From an uncultured Gammaproteobacteria bacterium (GTDB lineage Bacteria > Patescibacteriota > Microgenomatia > UBA10105 > UBA927): a stretch of 64,000 nucleotides of DNA. The translations under genes and the position numbers were made by a program. This document shows, one piece after another, positions 7,209-39,972 of the stretch. Each line of letters begins with the position of its first letter. Position 1 is the stretch's first letter. The notes beneath the pieces were generated by a model. It worked only from the letters and a program-made list of their open reading frames with translations, made no database searches and was not told the DNA's origin. The stretch is taken from the NCBI GenBank assembly GCA_964394685.1, contig CAYMYO010000001.1, positions 64,040 to 128,039 on the forward strand. The letters are read 5' to 3'.

Positions 7209-9606
7209 ATCTATAAAGAATCAATAAACAAACAGCTCCGATTAAACTTATATATACCCCAATGTTAAACGATTTCGGGAAATAGGTGAATGTCACTGTA
7301 TGTTTCCCTTCGGGAACAACTATCGCGCGAAATGCCCAGTTGGCTTTATAAATATTCGTTGTATTCTCATCGACTGTTGCCTTCCATCCCTCATTATACG
7401 TATCGCTCATAAATAGCATCTGTTGTCCATCTGTATGTGTAGAAAAAGTAATTTCAGTTGGAGTATATGATTTCAGGGACACGGTATGATTTTCTCCAAA
7501 TAACTTTGGAAGACGTGCTATGTCATTATCATGAAGATAAACTGTGTTATTGGTATTAGTTATGTTATAAAATTGCCGTTCAAAATCGTTTGTGTCAATA
7601 TAACCCTTGACATCTGTTGTGAGGAAAAATCTCGGAGCAGCCTTCATGTTTTCGAATATCGTCCATGTATCTTTTTGCCATACCGGTTTGAACCTGTCTG
7701 TTGGAAAAGTGTTGTCGGACATTGGATTTTCGGAGCGATTTAAAATGTATTTCACTCCCAGAAGATCCATTATGCGAAGTCTATACGTATTTGACGGAAG
7801 ATCATCAGCTCCATAACCAGGAGCAAGTTGTGCGTCGGAGCGGGTTGTTCTATTAAATATGTTTGCGATATTTCCATCACGACTGCTTTGAATAAATTCG
7901 TTATACCATTTGAGATTTAACGGATCTGTTCCGTCTGGAGAATAGGTGCGTGTTTGCGTAGCAAAGTTTGCCTCAATTGCCGCAGTGCCATATCCCCAAT
8001 ACCGATATATTCCGGAATTCGTTTTCATAAATTGCATGATTGCATTTTCCGGAAATGCGAACGAAGACGGTACAAAAGGATTAAACTTAATAAACGAATA
8101 AAATAGTTCGATTACGGAAAGGGCGATAAGTGCATAGAGAGCAAGTGATGAATATTTTTTTGCAATAAGAAGCGCTATGATTGCACCAAGAATGACAGAG
8201 GAAAATATCATCGCCCGTTTCATTACAGCAAACGATTGAGCTGTATAGGTAAGTCCGGGAATTGAAGGATGAATAAGAGCAAAAAGCCAAAGTAAAACAA
8301 AGATACCAATAAGTAGTGATATAAACGGAATAATTGATTTTTTTTGATTTTTTAATGCATCTATTCCAAAACCCGCAAGGATAGATAACGCAAACAGAAG
8401 AATAAAAAGAATTCTAGTTGGTGTTCCTGTTGACATGATGGGCATTGGATATCGGTATAAAAGTTGTGTTATTGGGGTATTGACGGTAATCAAAAGAATA
8501 GCTACAGCTGTCCAAAGAAAGAATACTTTATGAAAAGATTTTTTTGGGTCAATGAGTGTTGCGATGACCAGGGAAAAACCAACCACTCCGATGGACAACG
8601 TTTTCCCGACATAATCTCCGGTAAAATTAGTTTTTGTTGCAGGATTTCCAAAAAAGTCCTGAATAACAAGAAGTGGTAATTGCCACCACTGAATAAGCAT
8701 GTTTGAAACAATTTGTTGGTAATCATGAGCCACACGTGCGGAATTTTTGAATAATTCTATTGTCGGGAGGAGTTGGGGAGCGGCAAGAAGAAAGGGAATA
8801 ACAATGATAAATGCTAATCCGCCAGCTGGCGGATAAATAATAAATTCTATTTTTTCTTTGTTTGTCCACGATCGGAGTATTAATAAACGAATAGTTATAT
8901 AAATAACTAAAAATAAGAAGCAGTTTAGAAAATCTTGTGGATGTCCCGCAGTAATTGCTGAGAAAAAAGCAAAAATAAATAGAATTTTTTGAGCGAGAGT
9001 AAGTAATCTTTGTTTAATTCCGCGTTCAATAATAAAAAGTAGGAGAGGAAGCCAAAGGATGGTATACAAAATAGTAATAAATTCCATCCAAATAGAAGCA
9101 AAACTGGAAAAATTAAATAGAATTGCTGATGCAACAGCTGCAGTTGCGCTCAGTCCAATTTCTGTAGCAAATAGATAAGTAAATACAGAGCCAAGAAGCG
9201 GTTGTAAAATAATAAGAATTGTCCAAGCGATAATTTGAGGGAATATGTAATAGAAAATTGTTAACGGATAAAATACTTGTGATTGATAATTAGCAAGTAG
9301 TGGACTACCGGAAAAATTATACGGGTTCCATAAAGGCATTTTTCCTTTCTTTATTTCTTGTATAACGAGTGTTTTCCAGGGGTATAATTCCCTAATGACG
9401 TCAAAATATTGATCTTTCGATGGAATAGCACCTGCCACATACCCGTTATATGATTGGTGTCGCCAGGGGCCGTATCCTGATAAAAGTAAATCCCCCGGAA
9501 AAGGGATAAGTCCCCGAAACAGTGTTTTATAGAAGAAAAGACAGACAACCAGAAGAATAATTGCTATAGGTATAACGCGTTTAGGCATCAAGAGTATTTT
9601 TTTCAT
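7195..9606 (-). CDS. YfhO-family membrane protein (paralog of 3224-5530)
   Basis: The motif LIPFPGDLLLSGYGPWRHQSY is present. The 803-aa protein has many TM segments and a C-terminal YNEGWKATVD domain parallel to the + strand paralog. Confidence 0.65.
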   Translation of the reverse strand: MKKILLMPKRVIPIAIILLVVCLFFYKTLFRGLIPFPGDLLLSGYGPWRHQSYNGYVAGAIPSKDQYFDVIRELYPWKTLVIQEIKKGKMPLWNPYNFSGSPLLANYQSQVFYPLTIFYYIFPQIIAWTILIILQPLLGSVFTYLFATEIGLSATAAVASAILFNFSSFASIWMEFITILYTILWLPLLLFIIERGIKQRLLTLAQKILFIFAFFSAITAGHPQDFLNCFLFLVIYITIRLLILRSWTNKEKIEFIIYPPAGGLAFIIVIPFLLAAPQLLPTIELFKNSARVAHDYQQIVSNMLIQWWQLPLLVIQDFFGNPATKTNFTGDYVGKTLSIGVVGFSLVIATLIDPKKSFHKVFFLWTAVAILLITVNTPITQLLYRYPMPIMSTGTPTRILFILLFALSILAGFGIDALKNQKKSIIPFISLLIGIFVLLWLFALIHPSIPGLTYTAQSFAVMKRAMIFSSVILGAIIALLIAKKYSSLALYALIALSVIELFYSFIKFNPFVPSSFAFPENAIMQFMKTNSGIYRYWGYGTAAIEANFATQTRTYSPDGTDPLNLKWYNEFIQSSRDGNIANIFNRTTRSDAQLAPGYGADDLPSNTYRLRIMDLLGVKYILNRSENPMSDNTFPTDRFKPVWQKDTWTIFENMKAAPRFFLTTDVKGYIDTNDFERQFYNITNTNNTVYLHDNDIARLPKLFGENHTVSLKSYTPTEITFSTHTDGQQMLFMSDTYNEGWKATVDENTTNIYKANWAFRAIVVPEGKHTVTFTYFPKSFNIGVYISLIGAVCLLILYRYEKK

Positions 9607-9664: not shown

Positions 9665-11287
9665 ATGAAAAAAATAGTTTTAGCTGCATTGATTTTTTTT
9701 GCGTTTTTACTTCGAACATATAACATATCGCATGTTCCGCCGGCTCTTTCCTGGGACGAGGTATCTATCGGATATAACGCATATAGTATTTTAAAAACTG
9801 GGAAAGATGAGCACGGGAAGTTTTTCCCCTTAGATGCATTTGTCGCCTACGGTGATTATAAACCACCGCTTGCAATATATCTCACAGTTCCAAGTGTTGC
9901 TATTTTTGGATTAAACGAATTTTCCGTACGCTTACCTTCAGCGTTATTTGGAACACTGACTATAGTATTGACCTATTTTTTGGTCAAGGAATTATTCAAG
10001 AAAAATCAATCATTGGCGCTATTATCCTCCGCGTTATTGGCAGTTTCACCGTGGCATATCAATTTGTCACGGGCTGGATTTGAGGCAACTATTGCATTAT
10101 TTTTTGTTGTTTTTGGAACATGGTTGATATTGAAAGCTCAAAATCAACCTCGTCTGTGGCCTTTTGCATTTATTCCGTATGTATTATCCATGTATACATT
10201 TAATAGTTCCAGGTATTTTGTTTTGATATTTATCGTTGGTTTAAGTATTTATTGCTGGGAACATATACGAAAGTCTTGGAAACAAGTTATTTTAGGTGTT
10301 TGCATTGCAGGTATTATTCTATTGCCATTACTTCCGCATCTCGTATCAAAAGAAGCAAGACTGCGATTTGTTGAAGTAAATATTTTTTCCGATCCCCAGA
10401 CAGTGATAATAGCAAATGAGAGAATTAATCGGGAAGGTAATTCCATTATCGGAAAGATAGTAAACAATCGAAGAGTCGGGTATGCAAGAAGTTATCTCAT
10501 TCATTTTTTTGATAATTTGCAACCTGATTTTCTGTTTATCAAAGGAGATGGAAACCCAAAATTCTCTATTCAGGATATTGGACAGCTGTATTGGGTAGAA
10601 GCACCACTTTTAATTATTGGTATATTTGCACTTCTTATAGTAAATGCCCCGATCGCACTTCTTCTTATATTTTGGATTATTGCGGCCATTATGCCGGCTG
10701 CTGTTGCTCGGGAGACACCGCACGCGCTTCGTATATTAAATTCTCTTCCCACCTGGCACATTTTTATTGCTTTTGGGATGCTTTCATCAATACAATACGC
10801 TAAAAAAATACACGTCTTATTATCTACTGTTATTATATTATTACTTTCCGTGATATATGCACTTAATGGTATGTATTACCTTCATAAATATTATCGTCAT
10901 TATCCGATAGAATTTTCTGGTGAATGGCAGTACGGATATAAAGACGCGCTATCAAGTATTATTCCTATTGAGTCAAAGTACGCTTCCGTTGCATTGACGG
11001 GACTTATTGGTCGGCCGTATATGTATACGTTATTTTATAAGCAAATTGATCCAACAGAGTTACAAAGAACAAAAGACGTCCGATTTGATGCAGCGGGGTT
11101 TTATCACGTGTATGGATTTGGGAAGTATCGGTTTATAGATGAATTACCAGCACAACTGAATCCTCAAACACTCTATATATGGGATGCTACAACGGTTCCA
11201 AAGGGAGTACGTATTATTAGTACAATTAGACTATTAAATGGAATTCCAGTACTGGTGATATTTGATTTGGGAGCAGTCGAGTTATGA
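9665..11287 (+). CDS. ArnT/PMT-like (GT39/GT83-type) membrane glycosyltransferase
   Basis: The segment PPALSWDEVSIGYNAYSILKTGKDEHGKFFPLDAFVAYGDYKPPL contains the WDE loop motif. The MKKIV start lies 54 nt inside the track ORF. It forms a tandem paralog with the next gene. Confidence 0.7.
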   Translation: MKKIVLAALIFFAFLLRTYNISHVPPALSWDEVSIGYNAYSILKTGKDEHGKFFPLDAFVAYGDYKPPLAIYLTVPSVAIFGLNEFSVRLPSALFGTLTIVLTYFLVKELFKKNQSLALLSSALLAVSPWHINLSRAGFEATIALFFVVFGTWLILKAQNQPRLWPFAFIPYVLSMYTFNSSRYFVLIFIVGLSIYCWEHIRKSWKQVILGVCIAGIILLPLLPHLVSKEARLRFVEVNIFSDPQTVIIANERINREGNSIIGKIVNNRRVGYARSYLIHFFDNLQPDFLFIKGDGNPKFSIQDIGQLYWVEAPLLIIGIFALLIVNAPIALLLIFWIIAAIMPAAVARETPHALRILNSLPTWHIFIAFGMLSSIQYAKKIHVLLSTVIILLLSVIYALNGMYYLHKYYRHYPIEFSGEWQYGYKDALSSIIPIESKYASVALTGLIGRPYMYTLFYKQIDPTELQRTKDVRFDAAGFYHVYGFGKYRFIDELPAQLNPQTLYIWDATTVPKGVRIISTIRLLNGIPVLVIFDLGAVEL

Positions 11288-12924
11288 AACAGATACTATT
11301 AGTTATCGGAGTAGTTATTATTGCAGGAGTACTTCGATTGTATCAATTAGGGCAGGTACCAGTAAGTCCTGATTGGGATGAAGTGGCGCTTGGGTATAAC
11401 GCGTATTCAATTTTAAAAACCGGACGTGATGAATATGGTACATTCCTCCCTTTAACGTTTCGTTCATTTGATGATTATAAACCGCCACTTTATACTTATT
11501 TAACAGTGCCGTCTGTTGCGTTATTTGATCTGACGGTTTGGGCAGTTCGATTGCCCTCTGCGATCATGGGAATTTTAGCAGTATTAGGGACATATTTTCT
11601 TGTTAAAGAACTATTCAAAAAGAATCTAAACTTGCCAATAATAGCTTCGCTATTGTTGGCTATCTCTCCCTGGCATATTCAATTCTCACGTATTGCATTT
11701 GAAGCTAATACAGGAATAACGATAAATATCTGGGCAGTGGCAACGTTTTTTATGGGTTTGCGGAAGAAAGTATTTTTTTCAATATCAGCTCTCTTATTTG
11801 GACTTGGTATGTATGCATACCATAGTGAACGAATATTTCTTCCGCTTCTGGTTTTACTTTTAGGAGTGATCTATAGGAAAGAAATTTTTCAAAAGGACAA
11901 AATCCGCAGTATCGCTTCAGCGATTATTGTCGGCCTACTCGTGGTTGCCCCACTCATAACTGTGTTTGCGAATAAGTCTTCGATGTCTCGGGTGTATGGC
12001 ACGAGTATTTTTTCTAATCCTACCAATTTACTCGCCAGGTCAATTGCCAGCATTGAATACGATCAGAAATTAGGTGACAATATCGGAAAACTGTTTGATA
12101 ACCGACGCTTTGTTTGGGTGCAAACATTATTGTTCGGATACTTGTCTCATTTTTCATTTAAATGGTTGTTTTTAACCGGAGATAACCCAAGACATCACGC
12201 TCCCGATATGGGGCTATTATATTTATGGGAATTGCCATTTATTCTGTATGGTTTATATTCCATTATTAAAAGCAAAGAACAAAAAACAAAATACCTAATT
12301 ATTGGTTGGTTATTACTGTCCCCCATAGCAGCATCTCCTACAACAGGACTTCCACATGCGATACGAACGTTAGTATTTTTACCCATGTATCAAATCATTT
12401 GCGCAATTGGAATCAGTTCATTGTGGCAGGCATCAAACCGATGGAACATGTATAAAGTTTTTAAGAGAGTTTTATATAGTGTGGTTGTTTTATTTGCTTT
12501 AGGAAATTTTATTTACTATCTCGATATGTATTTCGTTCAACAAAATCCTGAATTTTCTGAATATTGGCAATATGGGTATAAACAAGCCGTTGAATACACG
12601 GAAAAGGTGAAACAAAAATATAAAAAAGTAGTTGTTTCAACCAATCTTGAGCAGTCCTATATGTTTTTCTTGTTTTATACGAAATATGATCCCAATAAAT
12701 ATTTAGCGTTAGGAGGAACAAAATCAGGAGGTTTTAGAGAGGATAGAAATGCGTTCGATGGTTATGAATTCCGGACAATTAAATGGCCCAGTGAGCAAAG
12801 AAACGGATCGATTCTTTATGTTGGGACGCTATTGGATATGCCGCACGGGAATGTTGCAAATATAACATTTTTAAATGGAAAACCGGCAATAGAAATGGCT
12901 GATATGCCAAGTGGAGCACCATGA
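11284..12924 (+). CDS. ArnT/PMT-like membrane glycosyltransferase (tandem paralog)
   Basis: The segment PVSPDWDEVALGYNAYSILKTGRDEYGTFLPLTFRSFDDYKPPL is near-identical to the motif block of 9665-11287. Its start overlaps the upstream stop in ATGA fashion. Confidence 0.7.
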   Translation: MKQILLVIGVVIIAGVLRLYQLGQVPVSPDWDEVALGYNAYSILKTGRDEYGTFLPLTFRSFDDYKPPLYTYLTVPSVALFDLTVWAVRLPSAIMGILAVLGTYFLVKELFKKNLNLPIIASLLLAISPWHIQFSRIAFEANTGITINIWAVATFFMGLRKKVFFSISALLFGLGMYAYHSERIFLPLLVLLLGVIYRKEIFQKDKIRSIASAIIVGLLVVAPLITVFANKSSMSRVYGTSIFSNPTNLLARSIASIEYDQKLGDNIGKLFDNRRFVWVQTLLFGYLSHFSFKWLFLTGDNPRHHAPDMGLLYLWELPFILYGLYSIIKSKEQKTKYLIIGWLLLSPIAASPTTGLPHAIRTLVFLPMYQIICAIGISSLWQASNRWNMYKVFKRVLYSVVVLFALGNFIYYLDMYFVQQNPEFSEYWQYGYKQAVEYTEKVKQKYKKVVVSTNLEQSYMFFLFYTKYDPNKYLALGGTKSGGFREDRNAFDGYEFRTIKWPSEQRNGSILYVGTLLDMPHGNVANITFLNGKPAIEMADMPSGAP

Positions 12925-14408
12925 AAAAGATTCCAACTTATTTTATTGTATGCGTATTTATTATTATCCTCGCATGCATCCCAAGAGCGATAGAGCTTGT
13001 GTGTGGTAATTACGTCTTTGGGTTTGACCAAGGGAAACATTGGCTTGGGGCAAAAGCTCTTGTTATTGATCATAGAATTTCACTTATTGGCGATGAGGTG
13101 GGTGGTGCACGTGGATTTTTTCAAGGTCCGGGATGGATTTATACGTTAAGTATTTTTTATTTGCTATTTCAGGGAAATCCATATGGGGGGATTGTACTCA
13201 TGTTCATAAGTGGAATTGCAACAGTGGCGTTAGCATTATGGTTATTTGGAAAAACACTTGGAAAACTAGAAGCCGGATGCATTGGACTTCTTCTTGCGAT
13301 ATCGCCAATTCTGATTGAATCTTCAAGAATGACTTGGCCGCCGCACATGATTCCTCCCCTTACTGTTATTAGTCTATACGCACTATGGAAAATGATTACT
13401 GGAACTTATGTATATATGCCTATGCTATTTTTTGTTGTTGGTTCTATGGCGCATTTTGAAATAGCGACAGCTGGAACAATGGCCATAGTACTAACGTTGT
13501 ATACAATTCCATTTATTATTGTAAAAAGAATTTCATGGAAGATAATTGTTCTATCAGTCCTTGCTTGGATTCTTCCATTTCTTCCTCTTATAGTTTTTGA
13601 TATACGCCACCAGTTTTTAAATGTAAAAGGTATTATTGAAACATTCGGTGGAGACAGACAAATTCAATCATCACTGCCTCTTTTAATTGCAAATCATCGA
13701 ATGATTTTTAATACAAATATATTTCATGCGTTTCAAACGATGTTTACCTCAAATATTGCTGTTATTGCACTTCTTATTATTGGGATGTTTCAATTTGTTG
13801 ATAAAACGGTTGCTCGGACAAGACGACAATTTCTTTTTTTCTTGTACGGATTTCCTCTAGTTCTGTTTGGAGTTCTTTTATTTTACAAAAATGATTTATG
13901 GCCCTGGTGGCTGTATGAATTGTCAGTTATCATGGTGGTTCTGATTGGAATGACTGTCTCTTGGATGATAAGAAGAAAAGGAATTTTGAGAATTACTGCA
14001 ATTGCTATCCTTATTTTTATGTTTGCCGGATACGCAAAAGAAAGTATTCGTTTTTGGAAAAACGACTATCCTAATTACGGGGGAACGGCAAAAATCCGTG
14101 GTAAAACGGATGCCATTGATTTTATTTTTCAGGAAGCAAAAACTAAAGATTTTGGTTTATTTTTCTTTACACCTCCTATTTATACATATTCCTATGACTT
14201 TTTAAATTGGTGGTATGGAAAGAAAAAGTATGGATATATCCCCCCACAAGAAATGAAGGCTACATTTTATCTTCTTGCCGAGCCTGATGCGGAAAAGCCA
14301 TGGACGTACAAAGGTTGGATGGAGACGGCTATTGTAGGGGGTGTTGTGGTTAATACATGGACATTGCCATCCGGATTTATTGTGCAAAAAAGAGTGATGA
14401 TGAAATAA
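12921..14408 (+). CDS. Polytopic membrane protein, GT-C-like (FDQ-motif family paralog)
   Basis: It carries GFDQGKHWLGAKALVIDHRISLIGDEVGGARGFFQGPGWIY, the same loop architecture as the genes at 437, 14410 and 19740. Start and stop overlap in ATGA fashion. Confidence 0.55.
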   Translation: MKKIPTYFIVCVFIIILACIPRAIELVCGNYVFGFDQGKHWLGAKALVIDHRISLIGDEVGGARGFFQGPGWIYTLSIFYLLFQGNPYGGIVLMFISGIATVALALWLFGKTLGKLEAGCIGLLLAISPILIESSRMTWPPHMIPPLTVISLYALWKMITGTYVYMPMLFFVVGSMAHFEIATAGTMAIVLTLYTIPFIIVKRISWKIIVLSVLAWILPFLPLIVFDIRHQFLNVKGIIETFGGDRQIQSSLPLLIANHRMIFNTNIFHAFQTMFTSNIAVIALLIIGMFQFVDKTVARTRRQFLFFLYGFPLVLFGVLLFYKNDLWPWWLYELSVIMVVLIGMTVSWMIRRKGILRITAIAILIFMFAGYAKESIRFWKNDYPNYGGTAKIRGKTDAIDFIFQEAKTKDFGLFFFTPPIYTYSYDFLNWWYGKKKYGYIPPQEMKATFYLLAEPDAEKPWTYKGWMETAIVGGVVVNTWTLPSGFIVQKRVMMK

Positions 14409-14409
14409 T

Positions 14410-15648
14410 ATGCGTTGGCGCACATGTATCGCCGTAGTATTTTTAGTTTTTATTTTTTTTCGCTTCTTTCAGCTTGAAGAGCGGCTTGTTTTAGGTTGGG
14501 ATCAGACAATGAATGCATGGGTAGTGAAAGATCTTTTGATTGATCATAAATTTCCACTTCTTGGAATGGCAGCAAAAGGAAACAGCGGAGTATTCATCGG
14601 TCCGGCATTTTACTATATTTTAGCTGCGTTTTATGCAGTTACGAAGTTACACCCAATCGCAGCCGGATATTACGCAGGAGTTATGAGTGTTGTTGCCGGA
14701 ATAGTACTTTTTTTTGTTGTTCGTCGTATATTTTCAGAGCGGGTAGCACTTATCGCTCTTGCTGTTGCGGCTATATCTTTTAAAGTAGTTTTTTCTGACC
14801 GCCTTGCTGGACCAATTCATTTACTTCCGTTTGTATCTATTGCAATTTTTTATCTCTGGTACACAGTGCTTATGGGAAATTCGAAAGCGCTTCCATTATT
14901 AGCTACTGTTATCGGATTTTCTTTCCACCTGCACATGACAGCTATATATTATGTATTTATTTCTCTTTTGTGTTTCCCTTTTATTCTTCGTCAAAAAATA
15001 CCGGTAAAGATATATATAGTATCCATCCTGGCGTTATTTGTTTGGTTTATACCAAACATCGTAGTGAATATTCAACAGAATTACACCCTGACAACAACAA
15101 CGGGTAACTTTTTTACTACCTTTTATCATGGTCTACATCTGCGGCGGGTTTTGCAGCTGTTACCCGATGCGTTTATAGAATTTGAGAAAATTATATTGTT
15201 GGGGCCGTTTTCTTTTATCCGCTATATCATGGTGCCGATATTTATTGTTCTTATCTGGTTACGGGAAAAAAGAAAAAAAGCACTGGTCATCATCTATCTG
15301 ACGTTGCTGTGGTATATCGTTCCCTGGATTGTGCTGTCAACGTTTCGGGGAGAGATAAGTGATTATTATTTTGTTATTACACGTTTTCCATCTCTTTTTA
15401 TTATTGGGTACTGCATAAATAGCGTTCTATCAACACGTAGATGGTATCTTATTGGAGGTGTAAGCATATTGTTTTTATGGTTTTCTTACAATAACATTGC
15501 TTTATTTAGTAGATCAAATGATCGAAACTTCATCAAACAACAAGACCGCGCAATGTCATTTATTCAATCCGGCAAGAGAATGGATTTTCAGGAAGGCATT
15601 GCTGAATCGTATCTTTATTTTTACTATCGCAACTTCGATATGCGGTAA
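14410..15648 (+). CDS. Polytopic membrane protein, GT-C-like (WDQ-motif family paralog)
   Basis: It carries GWDQTMNAWVVKDLLIDHKFPLLGMAAKGNSGVFIGPAFYY and is a tandem paralog of the gene at 12921. Confidence 0.55.
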   Translation: MRWRTCIAVVFLVFIFFRFFQLEERLVLGWDQTMNAWVVKDLLIDHKFPLLGMAAKGNSGVFIGPAFYYILAAFYAVTKLHPIAAGYYAGVMSVVAGIVLFFVVRRIFSERVALIALAVAAISFKVVFSDRLAGPIHLLPFVSIAIFYLWYTVLMGNSKALPLLATVIGFSFHLHMTAIYYVFISLLCFPFILRQKIPVKIYIVSILALFVWFIPNIVVNIQQNYTLTTTTGNFFTTFYHGLHLRRVLQLLPDAFIEFEKIILLGPFSFIRYIMVPIFIVLIWLREKRKKALVIIYLTLLWYIVPWIVLSTFRGEISDYYFVITRFPSLFIIGYCINSVLSTRRWYLIGGVSILFLWFSYNNIALFSRSNDRNFIKQQDRAMSFIQSGKRMDFQEGIAESYLYFYYRNFDMR

Positions 15649-15677
15649 ATAATCTCGGTATTCGATATAATACGATT

Positions 15678-17308
<1,631 letters not shown>

Positions 17309-17324
<16 letters not shown>

Positions 17325-18085
17325 TCCTGTCTGTCGCAATCGTAACTTTTAACGAAGAACAGAACATTGATGCTTGCTTATTATCAATCAGCCAACTGGC
17401 TGATGAAATAATCGTCGTTGATGGCGGATCGAGTGATACAACGTGTGAAATAGCAAAGAAATATAACGCAACAATTATCCACACAGATAATCCACAAATA
17501 TTTCATATTAATAAACAGAAGGCACTTGATGCGTGTCATGGGGAGTGGATTTTGCAGCTTGATGCAGATGAGGTGGTGACAGAAGAATTGAAGAAAGAGA
17601 TCCTGAATCCGCCAACTGGCGGACAGGATGACAAACATTATAACGGATACTATATTCCGCGGAAAAATTATTTTTGGGGTCATGTTATGAAGAAGGGCGG
17701 CCAATATCCCGATTATGTCATACGACTTATTCGTAACGGCAAAGCCCATTTCCCCTGTAAAAGTGTTCATGAACAAATTGAAGTTGATGGGACTGTTGGA
17801 TATTTGAAAGAACCAATGCTTCACTATTCATACAGAACAAAAGAAGACTATTGGAAAAAAGCAGATACCTATACGACGCTGAGGGCTCTATCTATGCAGG
17901 AAAATAACATCAAAAAAACGCTTGGTACATGGGTACGTTATAACATTATTCTTCCCATAAAAACTTTTTTTCTTTTATTTATCAGACATAAGGGGTTTAT
18001 TGATGGATGGTATGGACTGGTCTTTGCCTATTGGTCTGCGCTCCACTTCCCAATATCATATAAAAAATATCGTAAAATGCTATGA
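17309..18085 (+). CDS. Glycosyltransferase family 2
   Basis: The N-terminus is GT2-like (LSVAIVTFNEEQNIDACLLSI...VVDGGSSDTT), and the DADE motif appears in ILQLDADEVV. The gene overlaps the 3' end of 15678-17324. Confidence 0.8.
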
Positions 18086-18600
18086 AAAAAATAACTTCGG
18101 TTGTGATTTTATACATAATACTTTATACGTTATACCTTATACTTCCGCTTGCTGTACAAGCGGAATATGTTCTTCCCTATCCATCATCTATGCCGGGGAA
18201 TAAAATATATAAAATAACAAGATTAGTCGATTGGCTTAAGAATTATTGGTATTGGGGAGATATTGCGCAGGCGAAGTACCATCTCATGTTGTCGGATAAA
18301 TATCTTGTTGAAGCGAAAATACTTTTTGAATATAAACAATATTTATTGGGAGACGAAGCGCTTGTACGGTCTTCAAATGAGTGGCAGCAGATACAGCCGC
18401 ATCTCAATTTTGCAAAAAATCATAATAAAGATATTACGAAATTATTTATCCTCTATAAAGAAGCTGCACAGGTTCATGAAATAGTGTTGCGTTCATTTAT
18501 TGTTCCCGAATCAATACTGTGGAATCCTGAGAAAGGAACATCTACAAATTTATATTTAAAAGAAGATATCACGAAAGCGATTGAAATTCGTAAACAATAA
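18082..18600 (+). CDS. Hypothetical secreted protein (signal peptide)
   Basis: The start overlaps the upstream stop in ATGA fashion. The N-terminal hydrophobic stretch ITSVVILYIILYTLYLILPLAVQA has an AQA cleavage-like site. The mature part is hydrophilic and Tyr/Trp-rich. Confidence 0.5.
   Translation: MKKITSVVILYIILYTLYLILPLAVQAEYVLPYPSSMPGNKIYKITRLVDWLKNYWYWGDIAQAKYHLMLSDKYLVEAKILFEYKQYLLGDEALVRSSNEWQQIQPHLNFAKNHNKDITKLFILYKEAAQVHEIVLRSFIVPESILWNPEKGTSTNLYLKEDITKAIEIRKQ
18111..18145 (+). repeat. Heptad array R2: ATACATA ATACTTT ATACGTT ATACCTT ATACTTC (within signal-peptide coding region)
   Basis: Direct reading shows ATAC at a 7-nt period five times. The terminal ATACTTC unit is the same as in R1. 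Confidence 0.8.
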
Positions 18601-19753
18601 TATGAGGAGAATTGCATATCTGTATTACATTTTTATACTCGTATGTATCGTTGTTTTTTCTTATGGGTTTAAAGATCCGAATTTAACGTTAACAACCTCA
18701 CCGTTTCTTATTTCCATCACTCACCAACTCACGTACGTTGTGTATGTACTTCGCCCGTTAGCAACGCTCATTTTTTTAGGTATTCTTTTGAGTCTTTGGA
18801 GTTTTTATGCCATTGTATGTAGGTATGGAGAGAAATTATTTTCTAATTTAAAACATCTTGCGTTTATTATTATCGCATCAGCATTCATTCTTTCATTTTC
18901 TTATCCCGCGTTGACACATGATCTATTTAACTATATGACCACAGCCAAGGTAGCATTCACCCATGGAGAAAATCCATATGTTGTCATGCCGATTGAAATT
19001 CCAAATGAACCTTACCTAGCATTTACCAGGGCAGCTAATAAATATGCATTGTACGGGCCAATATAGATTGCCATAACTGCACTACCACACTACCTTGGTA
19101 ATAATAATATTTGGCAAACAATTATCATGTTTAAGTTATTAAATACATTTTTTTATCTTGTGTTTGTATATATGGTGTATCAGATAACAAAATCCTTGAA
19201 AAATACACTATTTTTCGCATTCAATCCGCTTATTCTTATCGAAACACTCGTTTCAGGTCATAACGATATTGTCATGATGGTATTAGCAGTGGCTGGACTT
19301 TATCTGTTTGAGCAAAAGAAAATATCGGAAAAAATAATTAGCATAATATTGTTATTTGCTAGTGTTTTGATAAAAGGAGCAACAATTGTCCTTTTACCGC
19401 TTCTGTTTGTAAGAAAATTTGACCGTGATCGCTTACTGCTTACTGCTTACTGCTTACTGTCCATCGTCTTTTTCATCGCAGCCCCCATTCGGGAAGAACT
19501 CTATCCTTGGTATGCAGTATGGCTTGTATGTATTGTGTCGTTTCTTCCAATCAAAAAGCATATGTGGCTGTACGGTTTTACAACAGTTCTAACTTTTGCA
19601 TTAGAGCTGCGGCATTTGCCATATATGTGGATGGGGTATTATGAAGGGCCGGGACCAGTACTTCGCACCATACTTACCGTTGTACCAGTTGGTATATATA
19701 TTGTTTATACCGGAATGCAATACCTATCAAAAAGACAAAATGAAAAAATTTAA
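18581..19753 (+). pseudogene. DUF2029/GPI-mannosyltransferase-like polytopic membrane protein interrupted by a single in-frame TAG (19064-19066)
   Basis: ORFs 18581-19066 and 19127-19753 are in the same frame, with 18581 = 19127 mod 3. They are separated only by TAG and read GPI*IAITALPHYLGNNNIWQTIIMFKLL across it. Both halves are hydrophobic, and their combined length of about 390 aa is typical for the family. Confidence 0.55.
19432..19459 (+). repeat. (CTTACTG)x4 perfect heptanucleotide tandem repeat inside CDS (encodes LLLTAYCLL)
   Basis: Direct reading shows four perfect copies. The TACT core relates it to the ATACTNN heptad family. Confidence 0.85.
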
Positions 19754-21218
19754 GACGCTGTTTATATTACTTGGATTATTTTGTATTGCAGTTGCACTCC
19801 GCTGGTATTTGTTGCCAAGTCATCTTTTTTTTGGACCGGAACAGGGAAGAGATTTCCTTGTAGTACGAGATATTGTAGTTAATCACAAATTGACCCTCAT
19901 CGGGTCAAAAACAGACATTTCCGGAATATTCCACGGACCAATATTCTATTATCTTGCAGCAATCCCGTTTGCTGTAACAAAGGGAAATCCTCTTGGTGTA
20001 TCGCTGTTCATGATCATCATTCAGGCCATTGGTGTTTTCTTTATTTATCTTCTTGGTAAAGATATAACAAAAAGTAAGCGGGTAGGACTGATGACAGCTG
20101 GTTTGTATGCAATATCATTTCTTGGAATTGTATATGGACGGTGGTTATCAAATCCACCGCTTTCTATTCCATTTTCAATTATTTTTATATGGAGTTTCGT
20201 TCGTATGTTGCAGGGAGATAGACGGTATCTTTTTCTTACGGCAATATCATTTGCATGTTTAGGTCAGGCAGAATTTATTAACTTTTTACTTTTCGCTGGT
20301 ATTGTATTTGTGCTGATTGTACGATTTTGGAAGAAAGTTTTGGCTATACCCATGTCATACATAGGAATGGCATTGATTGTAGCTTTTGCATTGTCTTTTG
20401 GAAGCTATCTGTTGTTTGATCTGCGTCATGAGTTTTTGATTTCAAAAAGCGTCATGGGGCTTGTAACTGGTACCTCTGGGTATGGGGTTTCATTTCTTGA
20501 GTCAATGAAAAATGCATCACTCATGTTCGTCTCACAGTTTGGAATGATATTTGGAATTCATATGTGGCAAATAGGTGCTATTTGTTTCGCGATCACACTT
20601 TTTGTATTAGGAGTTGAACGGAAACGACATGAATATATTGATTTAGTTATCATTTGGCTGTTAGTACCGATTCTTATCCTTATGGGACTGCGACATAGCG
20701 TACTGGAACAACTGTATGTTGGACTTGTTCCAGGTATGATTCTTGCAATTGCCATCTTTATTGAGTGGTTAATTCGAAAAATATCAATACTTGGGATTGT
20801 CGTGGGATTAAGTGTGATCGCGATGAGTATATACGCATGCGTGAGTTATCTTCCAAGTAATTCCTTCGTGTTTTTCCAAAGCCCGCAACCGAACGTCAGA
20901 TATCGCGACCAACAAAAGGTCGTGACGAGGATTTATCAATTGGCAAACGGCGACAATTTCTATTTTCAGTCATATACAATTCCATATTTTTGGCAGGATG
21001 CATGGACGTATCTATTTTGGTATCAGGGGATAGAAAAGTATGGATATATTCCGAAGGAAGAGGATAAATCCGTAGTCTATGTTATTGTTCAAAAAGATCG
21101 ATCTAATCCAACATTTCAAGCAAATTGGTATGAAAAAACTGTTTCAGCGTGGGGGAAAAGAACAGAAGGGTTTACAATTGGAGAATATACTGTTGAAATA
21201 CGAGAGCGAGAACAGTAA
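19740..21218 (+). CDS. Polytopic membrane protein, GT-C-like (EQ-motif family paralog)
   Basis: It carries FFGPEQGRDFLVVRDIVVNHKLTLIGSKTDISGIFHGPIFYY. The MKKFKTLF start at 19740 overlaps the upstream stop. The C-terminal soluble domain is about 100 aa. Confidence 0.55.
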   Translation: MKKFKTLFILLGLFCIAVALRWYLLPSHLFFGPEQGRDFLVVRDIVVNHKLTLIGSKTDISGIFHGPIFYYLAAIPFAVTKGNPLGVSLFMIIIQAIGVFFIYLLGKDITKSKRVGLMTAGLYAISFLGIVYGRWLSNPPLSIPFSIIFIWSFVRMLQGDRRYLFLTAISFACLGQAEFINFLLFAGIVFVLIVRFWKKVLAIPMSYIGMALIVAFALSFGSYLLFDLRHEFLISKSVMGLVTGTSGYGVSFLESMKNASLMFVSQFGMIFGIHMWQIGAICFAITLFVLGVERKRHEYIDLVIIWLLVPILILMGLRHSVLEQLYVGLVPGMILAIAIFIEWLIRKISILGIVVGLSVIAMSIYACVSYLPSNSFVFFQSPQPNVRYRDQQKVVTRIYQLANGDNFYFQSYTIPYFWQDAWTYLFWYQGIEKYGYIPKEEDKSVVYVIVQKDRSNPTFQANWYEKTVSAWGKRTEGFTIGEYTVEIREREQ

Positions 21219-21220
21219 CT

Positions 21221-22813
21221 ATGAAAAAGTCGATTATCATGTTCGTTATACTGGCGATGATCATCGGTTTTGCAGCTCTACCTCTATTTAATTCATCATA
21301 CCTACCAACTCATGACGGAGAATACCATATTATCCGGATTGTAGAATTTTCAAAAATGCTTGCCTCTGGTTATGTATTTCCCCGTTGGGCGCCAACGTTA
21401 AATAGCGGATATGGAATACCGATTTTTGAGTTTCATTATCCGCTCCCTAACTATATCGGTTCATTTGTTCGACTATTCACGCATGACGCAGTCTATGCGT
21501 ATCAAATATCCATGGGACTTGGGTATATCATTGCAGCTCTTGGGTCATTTTTATGGCTTACAAGCCTGTATGGACCGTTTGCAGCAGCTCTTGGAACTGT
21601 CGTGGGAGCATATGTACCCTATTGGTTTGTAGATATATACGTTAGAGGATCTATAGGAGAAGTGTGGGCGATAGCAATACTTTTTTTCATTCTTTGGGCA
21701 ATTGAAAAGAAGCAACATATTTACACTGCAATTATGTATGGATTATTGCTTCTTAGCCACAACATTCTTGGAATGGTGTTTACTCCATTTTTATTCATAT
21801 ATATGATAATTCGAAATAAAAAAGCTATTGGAAGTCTTGTTTGGGGAATTGGCTTATCGGCCTATTTTTGGCTCCCAGCGCTACTAGAAGGGAAATATGT
21901 TGTTGGGCTAAACACTGTTAATTTTAGAGAGCATTTTGTTGCCTTGTACGAATTATTGATTCCGTCCTGGGGGACGGAATTCTCAGGGAGGGGTTTTTCA
22001 GGCAGTAAAATATCATTCCAATTAGGCGTTATTCCAATACTGATTATTATTGCATCACTTATAACGATAATTTTGGAGAAACAGAAAACCAAAAATATAT
22101 TAGTGAAATGGTTCTTGGTATTAGTTGGATTACTTCTCGTTTTTGTGCTGCCTTGGTCAAAGGGGATTTGGGAGGTAACGAGACCACTACAGTTTGTTCA
22201 ATATCCTTGGAGATTATTGTCGTTTATGATTCCAATAACAGCGGTACTGACTGCCTATTTGGCCAAAAAATCAAAAAAACCTTACGTTATGGTTATGCTG
22301 GCTATTTTGGCTGTCATTGCCACGTTTCCCTATACCAGAAAAGTTCACTATGCACCACGAAATGAAGCATATTATATGACTCGAAGTAATTTTACAGATG
22401 GAACATCATCTATGGGAAATAGCTTTTCAACGATTTGGACAGGTTGGAAAAAGGAGCGGCCGGAATCAGAATTAGTTCTTCAAAATGGGAAAATGACAAA
22501 AAAGGGAACATGGCAATATTTGAAAAAAGAATTCAACGTTCGTATGGATGCTGAGGGAATAGTGACACTCAATACGCTCTATTTTCCCGGTTGGATCGTC
22601 GTTGTTGATGGGAAAAAAGTGCCAATACTCTACCAATCTGACGGGATTATTCGTGCCTCAATTCCAGCTGGCATTCATGCTATCAAAATTCAATTTACTG
22701 ATACAGCTCCAAGAACTATTGGAAATATCATATCAATAGCCAGTTTGGTTGGGATCATTGGATGGGGTATACTGACTGTATATGAGAGTCGCAATCGACA
22801 CAACACCACTTAG
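21221..22813 (+). CDS. Membrane protein with PTPS-related domain (paralog of 15678-17324)
   Basis: The sequence LPTHDGEYHIIRIVEFSKMLASGYVFPRWAPTLNSGYGIPIFEFHYPL...YWFVDIYVRGSIGE matches the paralog. The C-terminal LYFPGWIVVVDGKKV motif is present. The gene ends with TAG. Confidence 0.6.
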   Translation: MKKSIIMFVILAMIIGFAALPLFNSSYLPTHDGEYHIIRIVEFSKMLASGYVFPRWAPTLNSGYGIPIFEFHYPLPNYIGSFVRLFTHDAVYAYQISMGLGYIIAALGSFLWLTSLYGPFAAALGTVVGAYVPYWFVDIYVRGSIGEVWAIAILFFILWAIEKKQHIYTAIMYGLLLLSHNILGMVFTPFLFIYMIIRNKKAIGSLVWGIGLSAYFWLPALLEGKYVVGLNTVNFREHFVALYELLIPSWGTEFSGRGFSGSKISFQLGVIPILIIIASLITIILEKQKTKNILVKWFLVLVGLLLVFVLPWSKGIWEVTRPLQFVQYPWRLLSFMIPITAVLTAYLAKKSKKPYVMVMLAILAVIATFPYTRKVHYAPRNEAYYMTRSNFTDGTSSMGNSFSTIWTGWKKERPESELVLQNGKMTKKGTWQYLKKEFNVRMDAEGIVTLNTLYFPGWIVVVDGKKVPILYQSDGIIRASIPAGIHAIKIQFTDTAPRTIGNIISIASLVGIIGWGILTVYESRNRHNTT

Positions 22814-23816
22814 TTCAGGACATAGTAATCGAGGGATTGGTGTATACACAAAAGAGCTTATTAGAGCGCTCCAAACATATGAAAAAGGCCATGAATATGT
22901 CGTTATTAATGGAATAACGAAACAGACCGCTCTTGTAGATGTGGTTCATTATCCTTTTTTTGATCCTTTCTTTCTCACTCTTCCACTTTCTAAACCACAT
23001 CCGACAGTCGTAACGGTCCATGACCTCATTCCTCTCGTATTTCCGGAACATTTTCCTATAGGACTTCGTGGAAATATTAAATGGCAAATACAGAAACAAT
23101 CGTTAAAAGGAGCAAAGCACATTATTACTGACTCAATTGCGTCTAAGTATGATATTCATCGGATTCTCGGACGGTCTGAAGAGAATATCCATTCAATTCA
23201 TCTTGCCCCATCTTCGTTATATGACCGGATCCCGACAAAAGAAGTTATTGTTGCGGTTCGGAAAAAATACAACCTGCCCGAAGATTTTCTTTTATATGTT
23301 GGCGATGTAAATTGGAACAAAAATGTTCCCGGACTTATCAAAGCTACTGCTTCCATCTCTACTCCACTCGTATTGGTAGGGCGTGCATTTCTTGACACAT
23401 CACTTGCAGAAACAAGAGAAATTAACGGCCTTATTTCGAGTCTGGGAAGAGAAAAGTTTATTATCCGTCCGGGGTTTGTGACAGATAGCGATCTCGTATG
23501 CCTGTATGAGATGGCGACGTGTCTTATTCAGCCTTCACTTTACGAAGGATTTGGTTTACCTGTTTTGGAGGCATTTATGAGTGGCTGTCCAGTTGTCGTA
23601 GCAGATAACTCTTCACTATCCGAAATTGCCGGTCCCGGCATCCGAGTGGATGCGCAGTCCTGTGAGTCGATGAGCAAAGGAATACAAACAGTGTTAGAAT
23701 TCTCAAAAGAAAAGCGCGCGCAACTTATAGAATGTGGACACGCGTGGGTGAAACAATTTTCATGGAAGAAAGTTGCTCATGAAACAGTCGCTGTATATGA
23801 AAAGGCTTTGGGATAA
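22782..23816 (+). CDS. Glycosyltransferase family 4 (GT-B)
   Basis: The motif [30 protein letters not shown] is the GT4 signature E-x7-E region. The N-terminal RVAIDTTPL..GIGVYTKEL is also GT4-like. Confidence 0.85.
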   Translation: MRVAIDTTPLSSGHSNRGIGVYTKELIRALQTYEKGHEYVVINGITKQTALVDVVHYPFFDPFFLTLPLSKPHPTVVTVHDLIPLVFPEHFPIGLRGNIKWQIQKQSLKGAKHIITDSIASKYDIHRILGRSEENIHSIHLAPSSLYDRIPTKEVIVAVRKKYNLPEDFLLYVGDVNWNKNVPGLIKATASISTPLVLVGRAFLDTSLAETREINGLISSLGREKFIIRPGFVTDSDLVCLYEMATCLIQPSLYEGFGLPVLEAFMSGCPVVVADNSSLSEIAGPGIRVDAQSCESMSKGIQTVLEFSKEKRAQLIECGHAWVKQFSWKKVAHETVAVYEKALG

Positions 23817-24894
23817 ATATCGTTTTGTTATTGTCGCGTTTATTATTTGGAGAACTGTACTTTATTTTGGAGAACTGATATCAATAACTGTTCCCATATA
23901 TTCAAAAACATATATGGGACTTATTCCATGGGCGAATACGGACGGACTAAATTACATAAGAATTGCCCAGTGGGGATACGGACACTTAAACGAAGCATTT
24001 TTTCCCTTGTACCCACTCATCCTTCGGGGTATTCACTCTATTATTCCGTTGTCGTTTGAAACTATCGGTGTCGTTGTTTCTACTGCCTGTTTTTTCATTG
24101 GGCTTACTGTGTTGTATGGGATAGTAGCACAATTGTCAATTAAGAAAGCAAGATGGGTAGTTGTATGTATTCTTTCTTTTCCTACCGCATTTTTCTTCAC
24201 CGCTGTGTATACGGAGGCACTATTTTTTTTGTTAACAGTGCTGGTACTCTATTTTTCACACAAAAAGAACTGGTTATTGGCAGGCGTGTGCGTGAGTCTG
24301 GCAAGTGCCACTCGTATGATTGGCATATGCACCGCAATATTTGTTCTTTATGAACTATGGAAGGCGAAATACAAGCTCAAACTTTTTGATATTGTCGGAC
24401 TCCTCGTTATGCCTATGGGGCTTCTTTCCTATATGTATTATTTATTTATTCAGTATGGAGATCCACTACGGTTTGTCCATATTCAGGCATTGTATGAGAT
24501 AAATAGAAGCGTAGGACGCTTCATCTTTCTTCCACAAGTAGTATGGAGATATTTAAAAATTCTGGTTCTCGCTGTCGGAAAACCGACCATTGTGGCATAT
24601 GGCGTTTCGATTGTTGAATTTGTGTTGACAATGGGCGCTTTTTTTCTGCTTTATTACGGGTGGAAAAAGAAGGTGAAATTAAGTTATGTGCTTTATAGCT
24701 TAGTTGTGTTAATTATTCCAACGCTCACAGGTACGTTTGCGTCAATGCCCCGATATATTCTTACGATTATTCCGTTATCTATCATTCTTACGCATATTCC
24801 AAGGAATTCTATTAAATACGTTCTTATTAGTATATTTTCTATTCTCCAACTAGTATCGGTAATGTTATACTTGCGAGGTTGGTTTATTGCATGA
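23797..24894 (+). CDS. PIG-V-like (GT76-type) mannosyltransferase family membrane protein
   Basis: The sequence WANTDGLNYIRIAQWGYGHLNEAFFPLYPLILR matches the Mannosyl_trans2 N-terminal signature (W.sDg.hYl.IA..GY...laFFPlyPll.R). The protein is polytopic. The start is uncertain, and the track ORF begins at 23773. Confidence 0.65.
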   Translation: MKRLWDKYRFVIVAFIIWRTVLYFGELISITVPIYSKTYMGLIPWANTDGLNYIRIAQWGYGHLNEAFFPLYPLILRGIHSIIPLSFETIGVVVSTACFFIGLTVLYGIVAQLSIKKARWVVVCILSFPTAFFFTAVYTEALFFLLTVLVLYFSHKKNWLLAGVCVSLASATRMIGICTAIFVLYELWKAKYKLKLFDIVGLLVMPMGLLSYMYYLFIQYGDPLRFVHIQALYEINRSVGRFIFLPQVVWRYLKILVLAVGKPTIVAYGVSIVEFVLTMGAFFLLYYGWKKKVKLSYVLYSLVVLIIPTLTGTFASMPRYILTIIPLSIILTHIPRNSIKYVLISIFSILQLVSVMLYLRGWFIA

Positions 24895-25577
24895 AAACAG
24901 TATCTATTATCATACCGGTATACAACGAAGAACAAACGATTCAAGAAATACTTATGCGCGTTGAATCGGTTGATCTTCCAAATTGGAAAAAGGAAATCAT
25001 CGTTATTGACGATGGTTCTACTGATAAAACAAAAACTATACTGCGAAAATGGGAAAAGAAAGTTGAAGTGATATACAAAGCGAAAAATGAAGGAAAGGGA
25101 AGTGCGGTGAGTATCGGATTATCAAGGGTAACAGGAGATATTATTCTCATTCAGGATGCTGATTTGGAATATAGTCCAAAGGACTACCTAACACTTTTTG
25201 CGCCATTTGATAATCCTCAGGTACATGTTGTCTATGGTTCTCGTTTCTTAGGATCGCATTTATCTACCATGTATCTGTATGCGCAAGGAAATAAGTTTGT
25301 TACATTTATAACAAATATCCTTTTTAACACCAATATTACGGATATGGAAACAGGGTATAAAGCGGTAAAAAGAGAGGTGATTGATGGATTAACGTTGAAA
25401 TCGAAACGCTTTGATATGGAACCGGAACTAACCGCGAAAATATTAAAAAAAGGATATCAAATATATGAAGTGCCAATATCCTATTTTGGTCGTAAATTTT
25501 CCGAAGGGAAAAAACTAACGTGGCGGGATGGAATCGTTGCATTTTGGACTCTTATTAAATACAGGTTTACAGATTGA
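24891..25577 (+). CDS. GT2 polyprenyl-phosphate sugar synthase (DPM1/GtrB-like)
   Basis: The N-terminus VSIIIPVYNEEQTIQEIL...IIVIDDGSTDKT...IILIQDADLEYSP is GT2 DPM1-like. The 232-aa soluble domain has the DAD motif. Confidence 0.8.
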   Translation: MKTVSIIIPVYNEEQTIQEILMRVESVDLPNWKKEIIVIDDGSTDKTKTILRKWEKKVEVIYKAKNEGKGSAVSIGLSRVTGDIILIQDADLEYSPKDYLTLFAPFDNPQVHVVYGSRFLGSHLSTMYLYAQGNKFVTFITNILFNTNITDMETGYKAVKREVIDGLTLKSKRFDMEPELTAKILKKGYQIYEVPISYFGRKFSEGKKLTWRDGIVAFWTLIKYRFTD

Positions 25578-25578
25578 T

Positions 25579-27616: not shown

Positions 27617-27646
27617 GGATATGGACAATAAGCATAAAGTAATATC

Positions 27647-38967: not shown

Positions 38968-38973
38968 CCAGTG

Positions 38974-39948: not shown

Positions 39949-39972
39949 GGTATCTATACTATATTTTACACA

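Follow-up and report, generated by a model that had tools for sequence, protein, structure and literature searches.

Do the repeated membrane glycosyltransferase genes of an uncultured Microgenomates bacterium record recent duplications in place, followed by positive selection on the loops that determine substrate, or an old set of enzymes that has been kept? The question is raised by a stretch of 64,000 nucleotides (contig CAYMYO010000001.1 of assembly GCA_964394685.1, positions 64,040 to 128,039 of the forward strand; hereafter the window), in which polytopic membrane glycosyltransferases densely fill 0.4–22.8 kb, and an earlier note on positions 9665–22813 had favored duplication and diversifying selection. 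Genes are referred to by the names in Table 1 or by their first position. Our comparisons with related genomes lead to the second answer: the region 0.4–28.8 kb is very probably the membrane-enzyme half of a conserved surface-glycan locus of Gottesmanbacteria-related Microgenomates (Candidate Phyla Radiation, CPR, or Patescibacteria), which holds at least ten glycosyltransferases of the GT-C type and keeps ancient paralogs, and which varies by recombination, gene turnover and inactivation.

Window proteins were compared by all-against-all BLASTP and by global alignment, and the paralog families listed in the earlier note were recovered for every pair but one. Identity is 35–37% between the ArnT-like neighbors ArnT1 (9665; open reading frame, ORF, from 9611) and ArnT2 (11284; BLASTP E 6e-88), 29–33% between PTPS1 and PTPS2 (15678 and 21221; E 1e-55), 24–28% between DQ1 and DQ3 (12921 and 19740, the latter ORF from 19641; E 2e-30) and again 24–28% between DQ1 and DQ2 (12921 and 14410; E 7e-17). 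The two YfhO copies, on opposite strands at 3182 (3224 in the earlier note) and 7195, are 30–34% identical (E 4e-105), and the fourth copy of the DQ family announced at 437 (ORF from 380) was confirmed at ∼24% identity to DQ3 (E 6e-5). The ‘DQ loop’ by which this family had been named corresponds to an invariant [D/E]-Q (Q35) in its first loop, and the gene start at 19740 is matched by a 100% identical database protein of 492 amino acids (aa). Among the three giant proteins that had been described as copies, those at 46137 and 50210 are related (22–26% identity, E 8e-18) by BLASTP alone, since phmmer gave zero cross-matches among the giant proteins; the third (53459–55090) has no BLASTP similarity to either at E ≤ 1e-3 and matches only 15678, weakly.

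The long identical motif blocks attributed to these pairs were not found. Identical runs reach at most 12 aa in the ArnT-like pair (TYFLVKELFKKN), 8 aa in the PF10131 pair (NTLYFPGW) and 6 aa elsewhere, and the longest exact nucleotide match in any paralog pair is 16 nt. Moreover, the shared blocks, e.g. the presumed catalytic WDE loop and SPWH..SR..FE, are also kept in the orthologs of other genomes in a ten-sequence alignment, and thus they are family motifs and not traces of recent copying. Gene conversion between paralogs was rejected as well, because exact DNA matches do not exceed 16 nt and the 12-aa block differs at the DNA level.

To what age the duplications belong can be read from the relatives. 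With the 15678 protein as query, species-representative genomes yielded 14 Patescibacteria/Microgenomates loci, including metagenome-assembled genomes named Gottesmanbacteria, Levybacteria and Woesebacteria; a metagenome scan gave 29 further loci, and context look-ups added L052 and L053. When the ORFs of relatives were mapped onto the window proteins, one-to-one orthologs in kept order were found in L001–L014, L021–L043, L052 and L053, the conserved order being ArnT1-ArnT2-(ArnT3)-DQ1-PTPS1-GT2a-small transmembrane (TM) protein-MptA_B-like-(DQ3)-PTPS2-GT4a-12TM-GT2b-flippase-GT2c-GT4b, in which ArnT3 is a third ArnT-like copy. The earlier note had itself stated that one-to-one orthologs conserved in relatives would undermine its view, and on more than 13 other Microgenomates contigs they are present and in the same order. 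An early impression that DQ3 lacked a positional ortholog was overturned by the larger locus set.

Window proteins are 43–82% identical to their own orthologs, as against 23–37% between window paralogs, and in relatives the non-orthologous paralog scores ∼30% against each window copy. In neighbor-joining trees, ArnT1, ArnT2 and ArnT3 form separate clades, and so do PTPS1 and PTPS2, each clade with about ten genomes; at a deeper level ArnT1/2/3 group together to the exclusion of the outgroup copies (those of L009 and L013, and ArnT0), and the PTPS1 clade is sister to that of PTPS2. The pattern of a recent lineage-specific tandem duplicate, i.e. paralogs nearest to each other with a single copy in relatives, was not observed. 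As each paralog has its own ortholog clade and synteny is kept, the duplications should have taken place before these candidate phyla or orders diverged. Judged from these trees and gene orders, every duplication appears to predate the Gottesmanbacteria/Levybacteria split, and in the ArnT-like case it would have been a tandem one. Hence, one part of the proposed in-situ duplication stands, because the ArnT-like copies are adjacent and form one clade, for which tandem duplication is the simplest account, and the other part, a recent or lineage-specific origin, is contradicted by ortholog clades and synteny.

Comparison of dN/dS (nonsynonymous to synonymous substitution rates) between paralogs was abandoned, as 23–37% identity is far past synonymous saturation, and ortholog dN/dS together with counts of type-I and type-II sites was used in its place. 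For six orthologous pairs between the window and its closest relative, L001 (75–81% aa identity), dN/dS was roughly 0.08–0.14, and no window of 60 codons showed dN approaching dS. These values suggest that the orthologs are under purifying selection and do not bear out diversifying selection on the paralog loops. Over ten orthologs each, ArnT1 and ArnT2 share 97 conserved positions, mostly in residues 41–160, and differ at 33 positions that are conserved within each group, clustered in 281–320 and 161–200. The pattern of these 33 sites indicates fixed specificities, probably the result of old functional divergence, and not ongoing diversification. Diversification of surface-glycan genes is present at the locus, as the earlier note had supposed, but recent duplication of the paralogs and positive selection on them are not supported as its source.

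Variation of the glycan from strain to strain arises instead by cassette replacement, above all in the DQ3 slot, together with turnover of accessory GT-C genes and inactivation. Loci L001, L021 and L041 belong to one species and are 75–86% identical to the window in the flanks and 46–49% in the DQ3 slot; against L041, nucleotide identity of the window drops from 75–90% to 47–60% exactly across 19720–21220 and recovers to 85–91% at 21319. Within that species, L021 and L041 are 97–100% identical in the flanks and 74% in DQ3, with dS of 0–0.07 in the flanks, 1.3–2.3 in DQ3 codons 0–400 and 0.14–0.23 in the last 90 codons, and with dN/dS of ∼0.16 in DQ3. Because synonymous change is saturated within the gene and almost absent from its flanks, homologous recombination must have brought in a different allele; positive selection in place did not produce the difference. 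For the window itself the sign of an exchanged cassette is incongruent identity: a Gottesmanbacteria contig (L053) is 75% identical to it in DQ3 and 55–58% in PTPS1, PTPS2 and DQ1, L052 is uniformly ∼80% identical, and database matches to DQ3 form two sets, a small one at 70–82% and a large cloud at ≤52%. Smaller patches of clustered differences within PTPS1 indicate frequent small recombination imports at the locus. In one (L001:10513–10790 against L021:4081–4357), a stretch of 280 nt accounts for 34 of 46 differences, and another starts at ∼11050 between L028 and L034; both pairs of contigs are otherwise near-identical.

Gene content also turns over. DQ2 is absent in the closest species, where DQ1 abuts PTPS1 (L001/L021), ArnT3 is present or absent among relatives and missing from the window, and L001 has at 3179–5146 an extra membrane ORF of 659 aa, without a window homolog, between the orthologs of YfhO_b and ArnT1, which are directly adjacent in the window. 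Loss-of-function mutations recur in cluster genes. In the MptA_B-family gene a TAG at a conserved Trp codon leaves two ORFs where relatives have one of 366–386 aa, and the same TAG is found in an independent Logan assembly (L050); GT2a carries a 61-nt frame-breaking deletion in L041 (567–1279) compared with the near-identical L021; and two independent PTPS1 nonsense alleles occur in one sampled population, in 2 of 11 assemblies (L054:3001–4605 and L055:528–2132).

What the enzymes do is suggested by family and fold. The Pfam gathering cutoffs of PMT_2 (PF13231, 26.1 bits), PF10131 (PTPS_related, 26.4 bits) and YfhO (PF09586, 28.5 bits) are exceeded by the proteins with scores in Table 1, that of 5487 being borderline; DQ1 and DQ0 gave no match in the Pfam scan, and both are tied to DQ3 by BLASTP. 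The GT-C families are thus ArnT/PMT_2-like, a [D/E]-Q-loop subfamily of PMT_2, PF10131 and YfhO, plus one gene of MptA_B type. Against the models of ArnT proper (PRK13279) and PMT (NF058602), ArnT1 scores 17.3 of 567 bits and 24.6 of 800 bits, and the other paralogs gave no match; as both scores fall far short of these equivalog cutoffs, ‘ArnT-like’ is a fold-level label only. A search of PDB sequences with 12921, 9611 and 15678 returned nothing meaningful. The AlphaFold model of DQ3 (predicted local distance difference test, pLDDT, 93.7) has ArnT 5F15 as its top fold match (E 5e-7, TM-score 0.59), followed by ALG12, PglB, AglB, STT3 and AftA, and in Foldseek the model of PTPS1 (pLDDT 86) matches STT3, PglB, ArnT, AftA and AftD. 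On the basis of Pfam and these two models, with the other paralogs linked by Pfam or BLASTP, all four families are predicted to have the GT-C fold. The first loop has an invariant D49/E50 in the ArnT-like set, an invariant D30 in the PF10131 set and a nearly or fully invariant E34/Q35 in the DQ family, and in each family this acidic residue is probably catalytic.

Mechanistic expectations come from the GT-C systems ArnT/ArnC, GtrB/GtrC, CsbB/YfhO and Emb/Aft/Mpt. In NCBIfam, GT2b and GT2c are most similar, though below cutoff in every case, to synthases of polyprenyl-phosphate sugars (AglJ, Dol-P-hexose transferase, ArnC, PgfS and PpgS), and the cluster contains a Wzx-like flippase by Pfam. 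Because of the known systems and this sub-threshold similarity, we suppose that the GT-C enzymes use polyprenyl-phosphate-linked donors on the external face of the membrane. In such a pathway cytoplasmic GT2 enzymes would attach sugars to polyprenyl phosphate, and the resulting lipid-linked sugars would be flipped across the membrane. On its outer side the GT-C paralogs would then act stepwise, each adding one particular sugar or linkage to a surface protein or a polymer of the wall. Since their duplication the paralogs would have been separate, non-redundant enzymes held by purifying selection.

Could the same arrangement be explained otherwise? The adjacency of paralogs, their shared motifs and the 12-aa run of the ArnT pair are what recent lineage-specific duplication, with subsequent positive selection on substrate loops, would produce, but this explanation is left with hardly any probability by the low paralog identity and short DNA matches, by separate ortholog clades and kept synteny in many genomes, by the low dN/dS and by the occurrence of the same blocks family-wide. 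It is also improbable that unrelated GT-C genes were acquired independently by horizontal transfer and came to lie side by side. The locus is indeed recombinogenic, with single cassettes moving between lineages, and neither PTPS1 and PTPS2 nor the DQ copies are strictly adjacent, but the tandem ArnT1/2/3 form one clade against the copies in L009, L013 and ArnT0, and PTPS1 and PTPS2 are sister clades. A third explanation is compatible with ancient duplication and concerns why pairs were kept: ArnT1-ArnT2, and perhaps PTPS1-PTPS2, might be obligate hetero-oligomers and not enzymes of separate steps. Yeast Pmt1-Pmt2 and mycobacterial EmbA-EmbB are obligate hetero-oligomers of this kind, and both complexes are among the PDB fold matches; ArnT1 and ArnT2 are always found together and side by side in the genomes that have them, with a 4-nt stop/start overlap. 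We consider this rather unlikely, though less so than horizontal assembly, as both copies retain the acidic motif with its presumed catalytic role and show their own sets of conserved, paralog-specific residues, and four or five genes separate PTPS1 from PTPS2.

We thus prefer the reading of anciently duplicated, separately acting enzymes in a locus that varies by recombination and gene loss, and several points weigh against it. The neighbor-joining trees were built without bootstrap; dS between the window and L001 is already 1.1–1.6, so that dN/dS is rough, and episodic positive selection on short loops could still have occurred. Replacement of the window's own DQ3 allele is suggested by incongruent identities, the dS contrast being unusable where the flanks are saturated too. 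Finally, no GT-C of the locus reaches any curated NCBIfam cutoff.

A further source of variation is raised by heptanucleotide arrays. A scan for perfect tandem repeats of period 2–12 in the window and all distinct loci (704 kb) gave 36 arrays, 33 of them of period 7, which lie mostly within glycan-cluster genes (GT-C, GT2 and GT4), with a minority in unannotated or intergenic sequence. Loci bearing them include L001, L004, L009, L015, L016, L024, L026, L036, L037 and L048, among others, from Microgenomates and Anaerolineae. In the window, PTPS1 contains the perfect array (ATACTTT)x4.9, the MptA_B-like gene (GCTTACT)x4.1 and a GT4 gene (AAGTATC)x3 (61321–61341). Degenerate (ATACNNN)x5 arrays lie at 18111, 59762 (minus strand), 60750 and 60875, and six matches to (ATACNNN) in at least three units were counted where none was expected. 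The earlier remark that arrays occur in some paralogs and not in their twins applies to PTPS1, whose twin PTPS2 has none, but not to the GCTTACT array, which is outside the listed paralogs.

At the PTPS1 site the tract encodes part of a TM helix and leaves protein length unchanged. Period 7 has persisted here across deeply diverged orthologs even though the repeated sequence itself has changed, the units being ATACTAC in L004 (10566–10598), TTTCTGT in L036 (391–423), TTACTGT in L027 and ATCCTTT in L026, with further tracts in L024 (∼4480–4540) and L025 and a decayed copy in L001; peptide periodicity of i/i+7 is found at this site in 16 of 61 orthologous proteins versus 1.6% of background windows. 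Two orthologous proteins that are otherwise identical (P0137 and P0243) have 5 and 8 heptads, an in-frame difference of seven residues. A gain or loss of one or two units at the PTPS1 array is predicted to truncate the product to 234–253 aa, and as the unit length is not divisible by 3 and the tracts are perfect and within ORFs, a one-unit change would truncate the product at 16316–16349, 19431–19459 and 61321–61341. That the arrays are a lineage-typical switching device, in which changes of one or two units toggle glycosyltransferases off and on, is predicted from sequence and should be taken as a tentative proposal. No out-of-frame allele was seen at heptad tracts in the assemblies compared, the GCTTACT tract is identical in two other assemblies, and unit turnover can alternatively be caused by in-frame three-unit steps. 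Truncated PTPS1 products (P0274, P0271/P0273) had been candidates for frame-shifted OFF alleles and were rejected, as they derive from point nonsense mutations in a single species that has no tract. Four contigs assembled independently of one another are broken exactly at a heptad array (starts of L044, L040 and L048, end of L033), and the broken arrays are intact in an identical longer contig (pairs L004/L044, L024/L040 and L009/L033); such breaks could reflect tract-length heterogeneity or an assembler artefact.

Two of the ATAC-heptad arrays, 59764–59796 and 60750–60782, constitute a 33-nt inverted repeat (82% complementary) around a segment of 953 nt. This segment holds an apparently split GT4 gene on the minus strand (59808–60242 and 60178–60747), directly upstream of a plus-strand GT4 gene (60789–61970), and it may be invertible, or have been inverted once, through the flanking ATAC-type arrays. 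Short G+C-rich hairpins adjoin ATAC-heptad arrays at 18143–18165, 61341–61362 and 59745–59757, two of them inside ORFs; the one after the 18111 array reads TTCCGCTTG-CTGTA-CAAGCGGAA, and CCTGCC-GGAC-GGGCAGG stands between two AAGTATC arrays of the GT4 gene. In the literature, nothing directly relevant to GT-C expansions or heptanucleotide repeats in CPR bacteria was found, and the hypervariable 9-mer repeat of Gracilibacteria is a different phenomenon (PMC6851277).

By Pfam and NCBIfam scans of its proteins, the window is one very large surface-glycan locus, with ∼36% G+C and nearly all coding on the plus strand (Table 1). Exact look-ups of its proteins 11284–12924 and 36306–38141 and of P0121 found no entry, and its affiliation is deduced from the relatives. 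Beyond 22.8 kb the membrane enzymes give way to GT4 and GT2 enzymes, the Wzx-like flippase and enzymes of sugar-nucleotide modification (aminotransferases, epimerases/dehydratases, and acetyl-, carbamoyl- and methyltransferases), and a second set of large membrane proteins occupies 46–57 kb, in which the 46137 and 50210 proteins matched no Pfam or NCBIfam family. The genes of 36306–42829 (carbamoyltransferase, GNAT, methyltransferase, thiolase, short-chain dehydrogenase and OTCase-family carbamoyltransferase) raise the possibility that the sugars carry unusual acyl or carbamoyl groups. A membrane-protein ORF (52369–53454) contains, at 53176–53293, 3.0 copies of a 39-nt unit (97% identity; 13 aa x3). 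Rfam at gathering threshold gave zero matches across the window, and promoter and terminator scans of it gave signal at chance level only.

Table 1. Features of the glycosyltransferase region and of the distal membrane-protein genes; positions refer to the window
Feature	Position	Strand	Evidence and remarks
DQ0, distant [D/E]-Q GT-C family member	437–1909 (ORF from 380)	+	∼24% identity to 19641 and 12921; ∼11 TM-like segments; [D/E]-Q motif present; no Pfam match
YfhO_a, GT-C membrane protein	3182–5530 (earlier start 3224)	+	Pfam YfhO 65.6 bits (cutoff 28.5); 30% identity to 7195
ArnT0, outgroup PMT_2-family GT-C	5487–7208	−	Pfam PMT_2 26.6 bits (cutoff 26.1, borderline); 24% to 9611; L001 ortholog 76%
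YfhO_b	7195–9606	−	Pfam YfhO 78.3 bits; orthologs L001 76%, L025 57%, L002 52%
ArnT1, PMT_2/PMT-family GT-C, WDE motif in first loop	9665–11287 (ORF from 9611)	+	PMT_2 54.8 bits, PMT 48.4 bits; D49/E50 invariant; own ortholog clade, 10 genomes
ArnT2, tandem paralog of ArnT1, 4-nt start/stop overlap	11284–12924	+	35–37% identity to ArnT1; PMT_2 46.7 bits; own ortholog clade; 33 type-II sites against ArnT1
DQ1, [D/E]-Q family GT-C	12921–14408	+	No Pfam match; E 2e-30 to 19641, itself a PMT_2 match; orthologs 77% (L001/L021), 31–55% elsewhere
DQ2, accessory [D/E]-Q family GT-C, variably present	14410–15648	+	PMT_2 34.4 bits; orthologs 37–40% in L004, L012, L029, L032
PTPS1, PF10131-family GT-C	15678–17324	+	Pfam 40.7 bits (cutoff 26.4); AlphaFold model; own ortholog clade
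Perfect heptanucleotide array (ATACTTT)x4.9, part of a PTPS1 TM helix	16316–16349	+	Tandem-repeat scan
GT2a glycosyltransferase	17303–18085	+	Pfam Glycos_transf_2 76 bits; directly 3′ of PTPS1 in relatives too
Small protein, single N-terminal TM segment, conserved cluster member	18082–18600	+	Weak DUF5667 similarity; Pfam DUF5667 on record for orthologs
MptA_B-family (GT87-like) GT-C gene split by in-frame TAG 19064–19066	18581–19753	+	Holds (GCTTACT)x4.1 at 19431–19459; PF26314 recorded on product
DQ3, GT-C gene in recombinationally swapped variable slot	19740–21218 (ORF from 19641)	+	PMT_2 45.5 bits; AlphaFold model; divergence island
PTPS2, PF10131-family GT-C, ancient PTPS1 paralog	21221–22813	+	Pfam 43.8 bits; 29–33% identity to PTPS1; own ortholog clade
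Downstream cluster half: GT4a, 12-TM protein, GT2b, Wzx-like flippase, GT2c, GT4b	22782–28756	+	Pfam; gene order kept in relatives
Two ∼720-aa polytopic paralogs (46137–48293, 50210–52408), each with methyltransferase before or after	46137–52408	+	22–26% identity, E 8e-18; 13–14 TM-like segments

Set beside known systems, the paralog arrays are genuine and old, and such arrays are commonplace in glycan loci rich in GT-C genes; the heptanucleotide tracts stand out as the most unusual feature. The mycobacterial and corynebacterial sets (tandem EmbC-EmbA-EmbB, AftA-D, MptA/MptB, PimE and the polyprenyl-P-mannose synthase Ppm1) likewise have several GT-C paralogs, some in tandem, each of which is presumed to form a single linkage on the outside of the membrane with lipid-phosphate sugars as donors, and they are matched here by the MptA_B-family gene and by fold matches to AftA, AftB, AftD and Emb; in contrast, the window proteins do not belong to Emb or Aft by sequence, the phylum is of the CPR, and one slot is allele-swapped. 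The three-component systems GtrA/GtrB/GtrC, CsbB-GtcA-YfhO (teichoic acids) and PgfS-PgfM1-PgfE-PgfM2 (Streptococcus mutans) resemble the locus in combining a gene like a GT2 polyprenyl-P-sugar synthase with a GT-C of YfhO or PF10131 type, and besides the YfhO membership in Pfam, NCBIfam shows a weak resemblance to PgfS and PgfM1. However, the window has many more GT-C genes per locus, all its NCBIfam scores are far below cutoffs, and a Wzx-like flippase was identified instead of a small flippase of GtrA type. With ArnT, the lipid A L-Ara4N transferase, and bacterial PMT (GT83/GT39), the window proteins share the PMT_2/PMT domain, the best fold match of DQ3 and the acidic motif of the first loop, but not membership in the equivalog models.

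O-antigen, capsule and archaeal agl clusters are known to exchange glycosyltransferase cassettes by recombination between conserved flanks. The DQ3 slot has the features of such mosaic loci, i.e. a sharp fall of identity limited to one gene with conserved sequence on both sides, synonymous divergence at saturation in that gene but almost nil around it, and allele similarity that disagrees with the flanks, but here a single GT-C enzyme is exchanged within an otherwise strictly syntenic cluster of uncultured CPR bacteria, rather than an entire serotype block.

The repeated glycosyltransferase genes thus form an old and stable set of tools rather than the product of a duplication burst still under way, and the gene order of a multi-GT-C surface-glycan cluster is now defined across Microgenomates. 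Strain-level surface variation is traced to a single exchangeable GT-C slot and to knock-outs that recur, a pattern as in the O-antigen and capsule loci of cultured pathogens, which suggests similar pressure from phages or hosts on CPR surfaces. The heptanucleotide tracts, for their part, offer a concrete hypothesis of phase variation in CPR bacteria; if it is true, these reduced-genome and presumably phage- and host-exposed bacteria would possess a stochastic repertoire of surface glycans.

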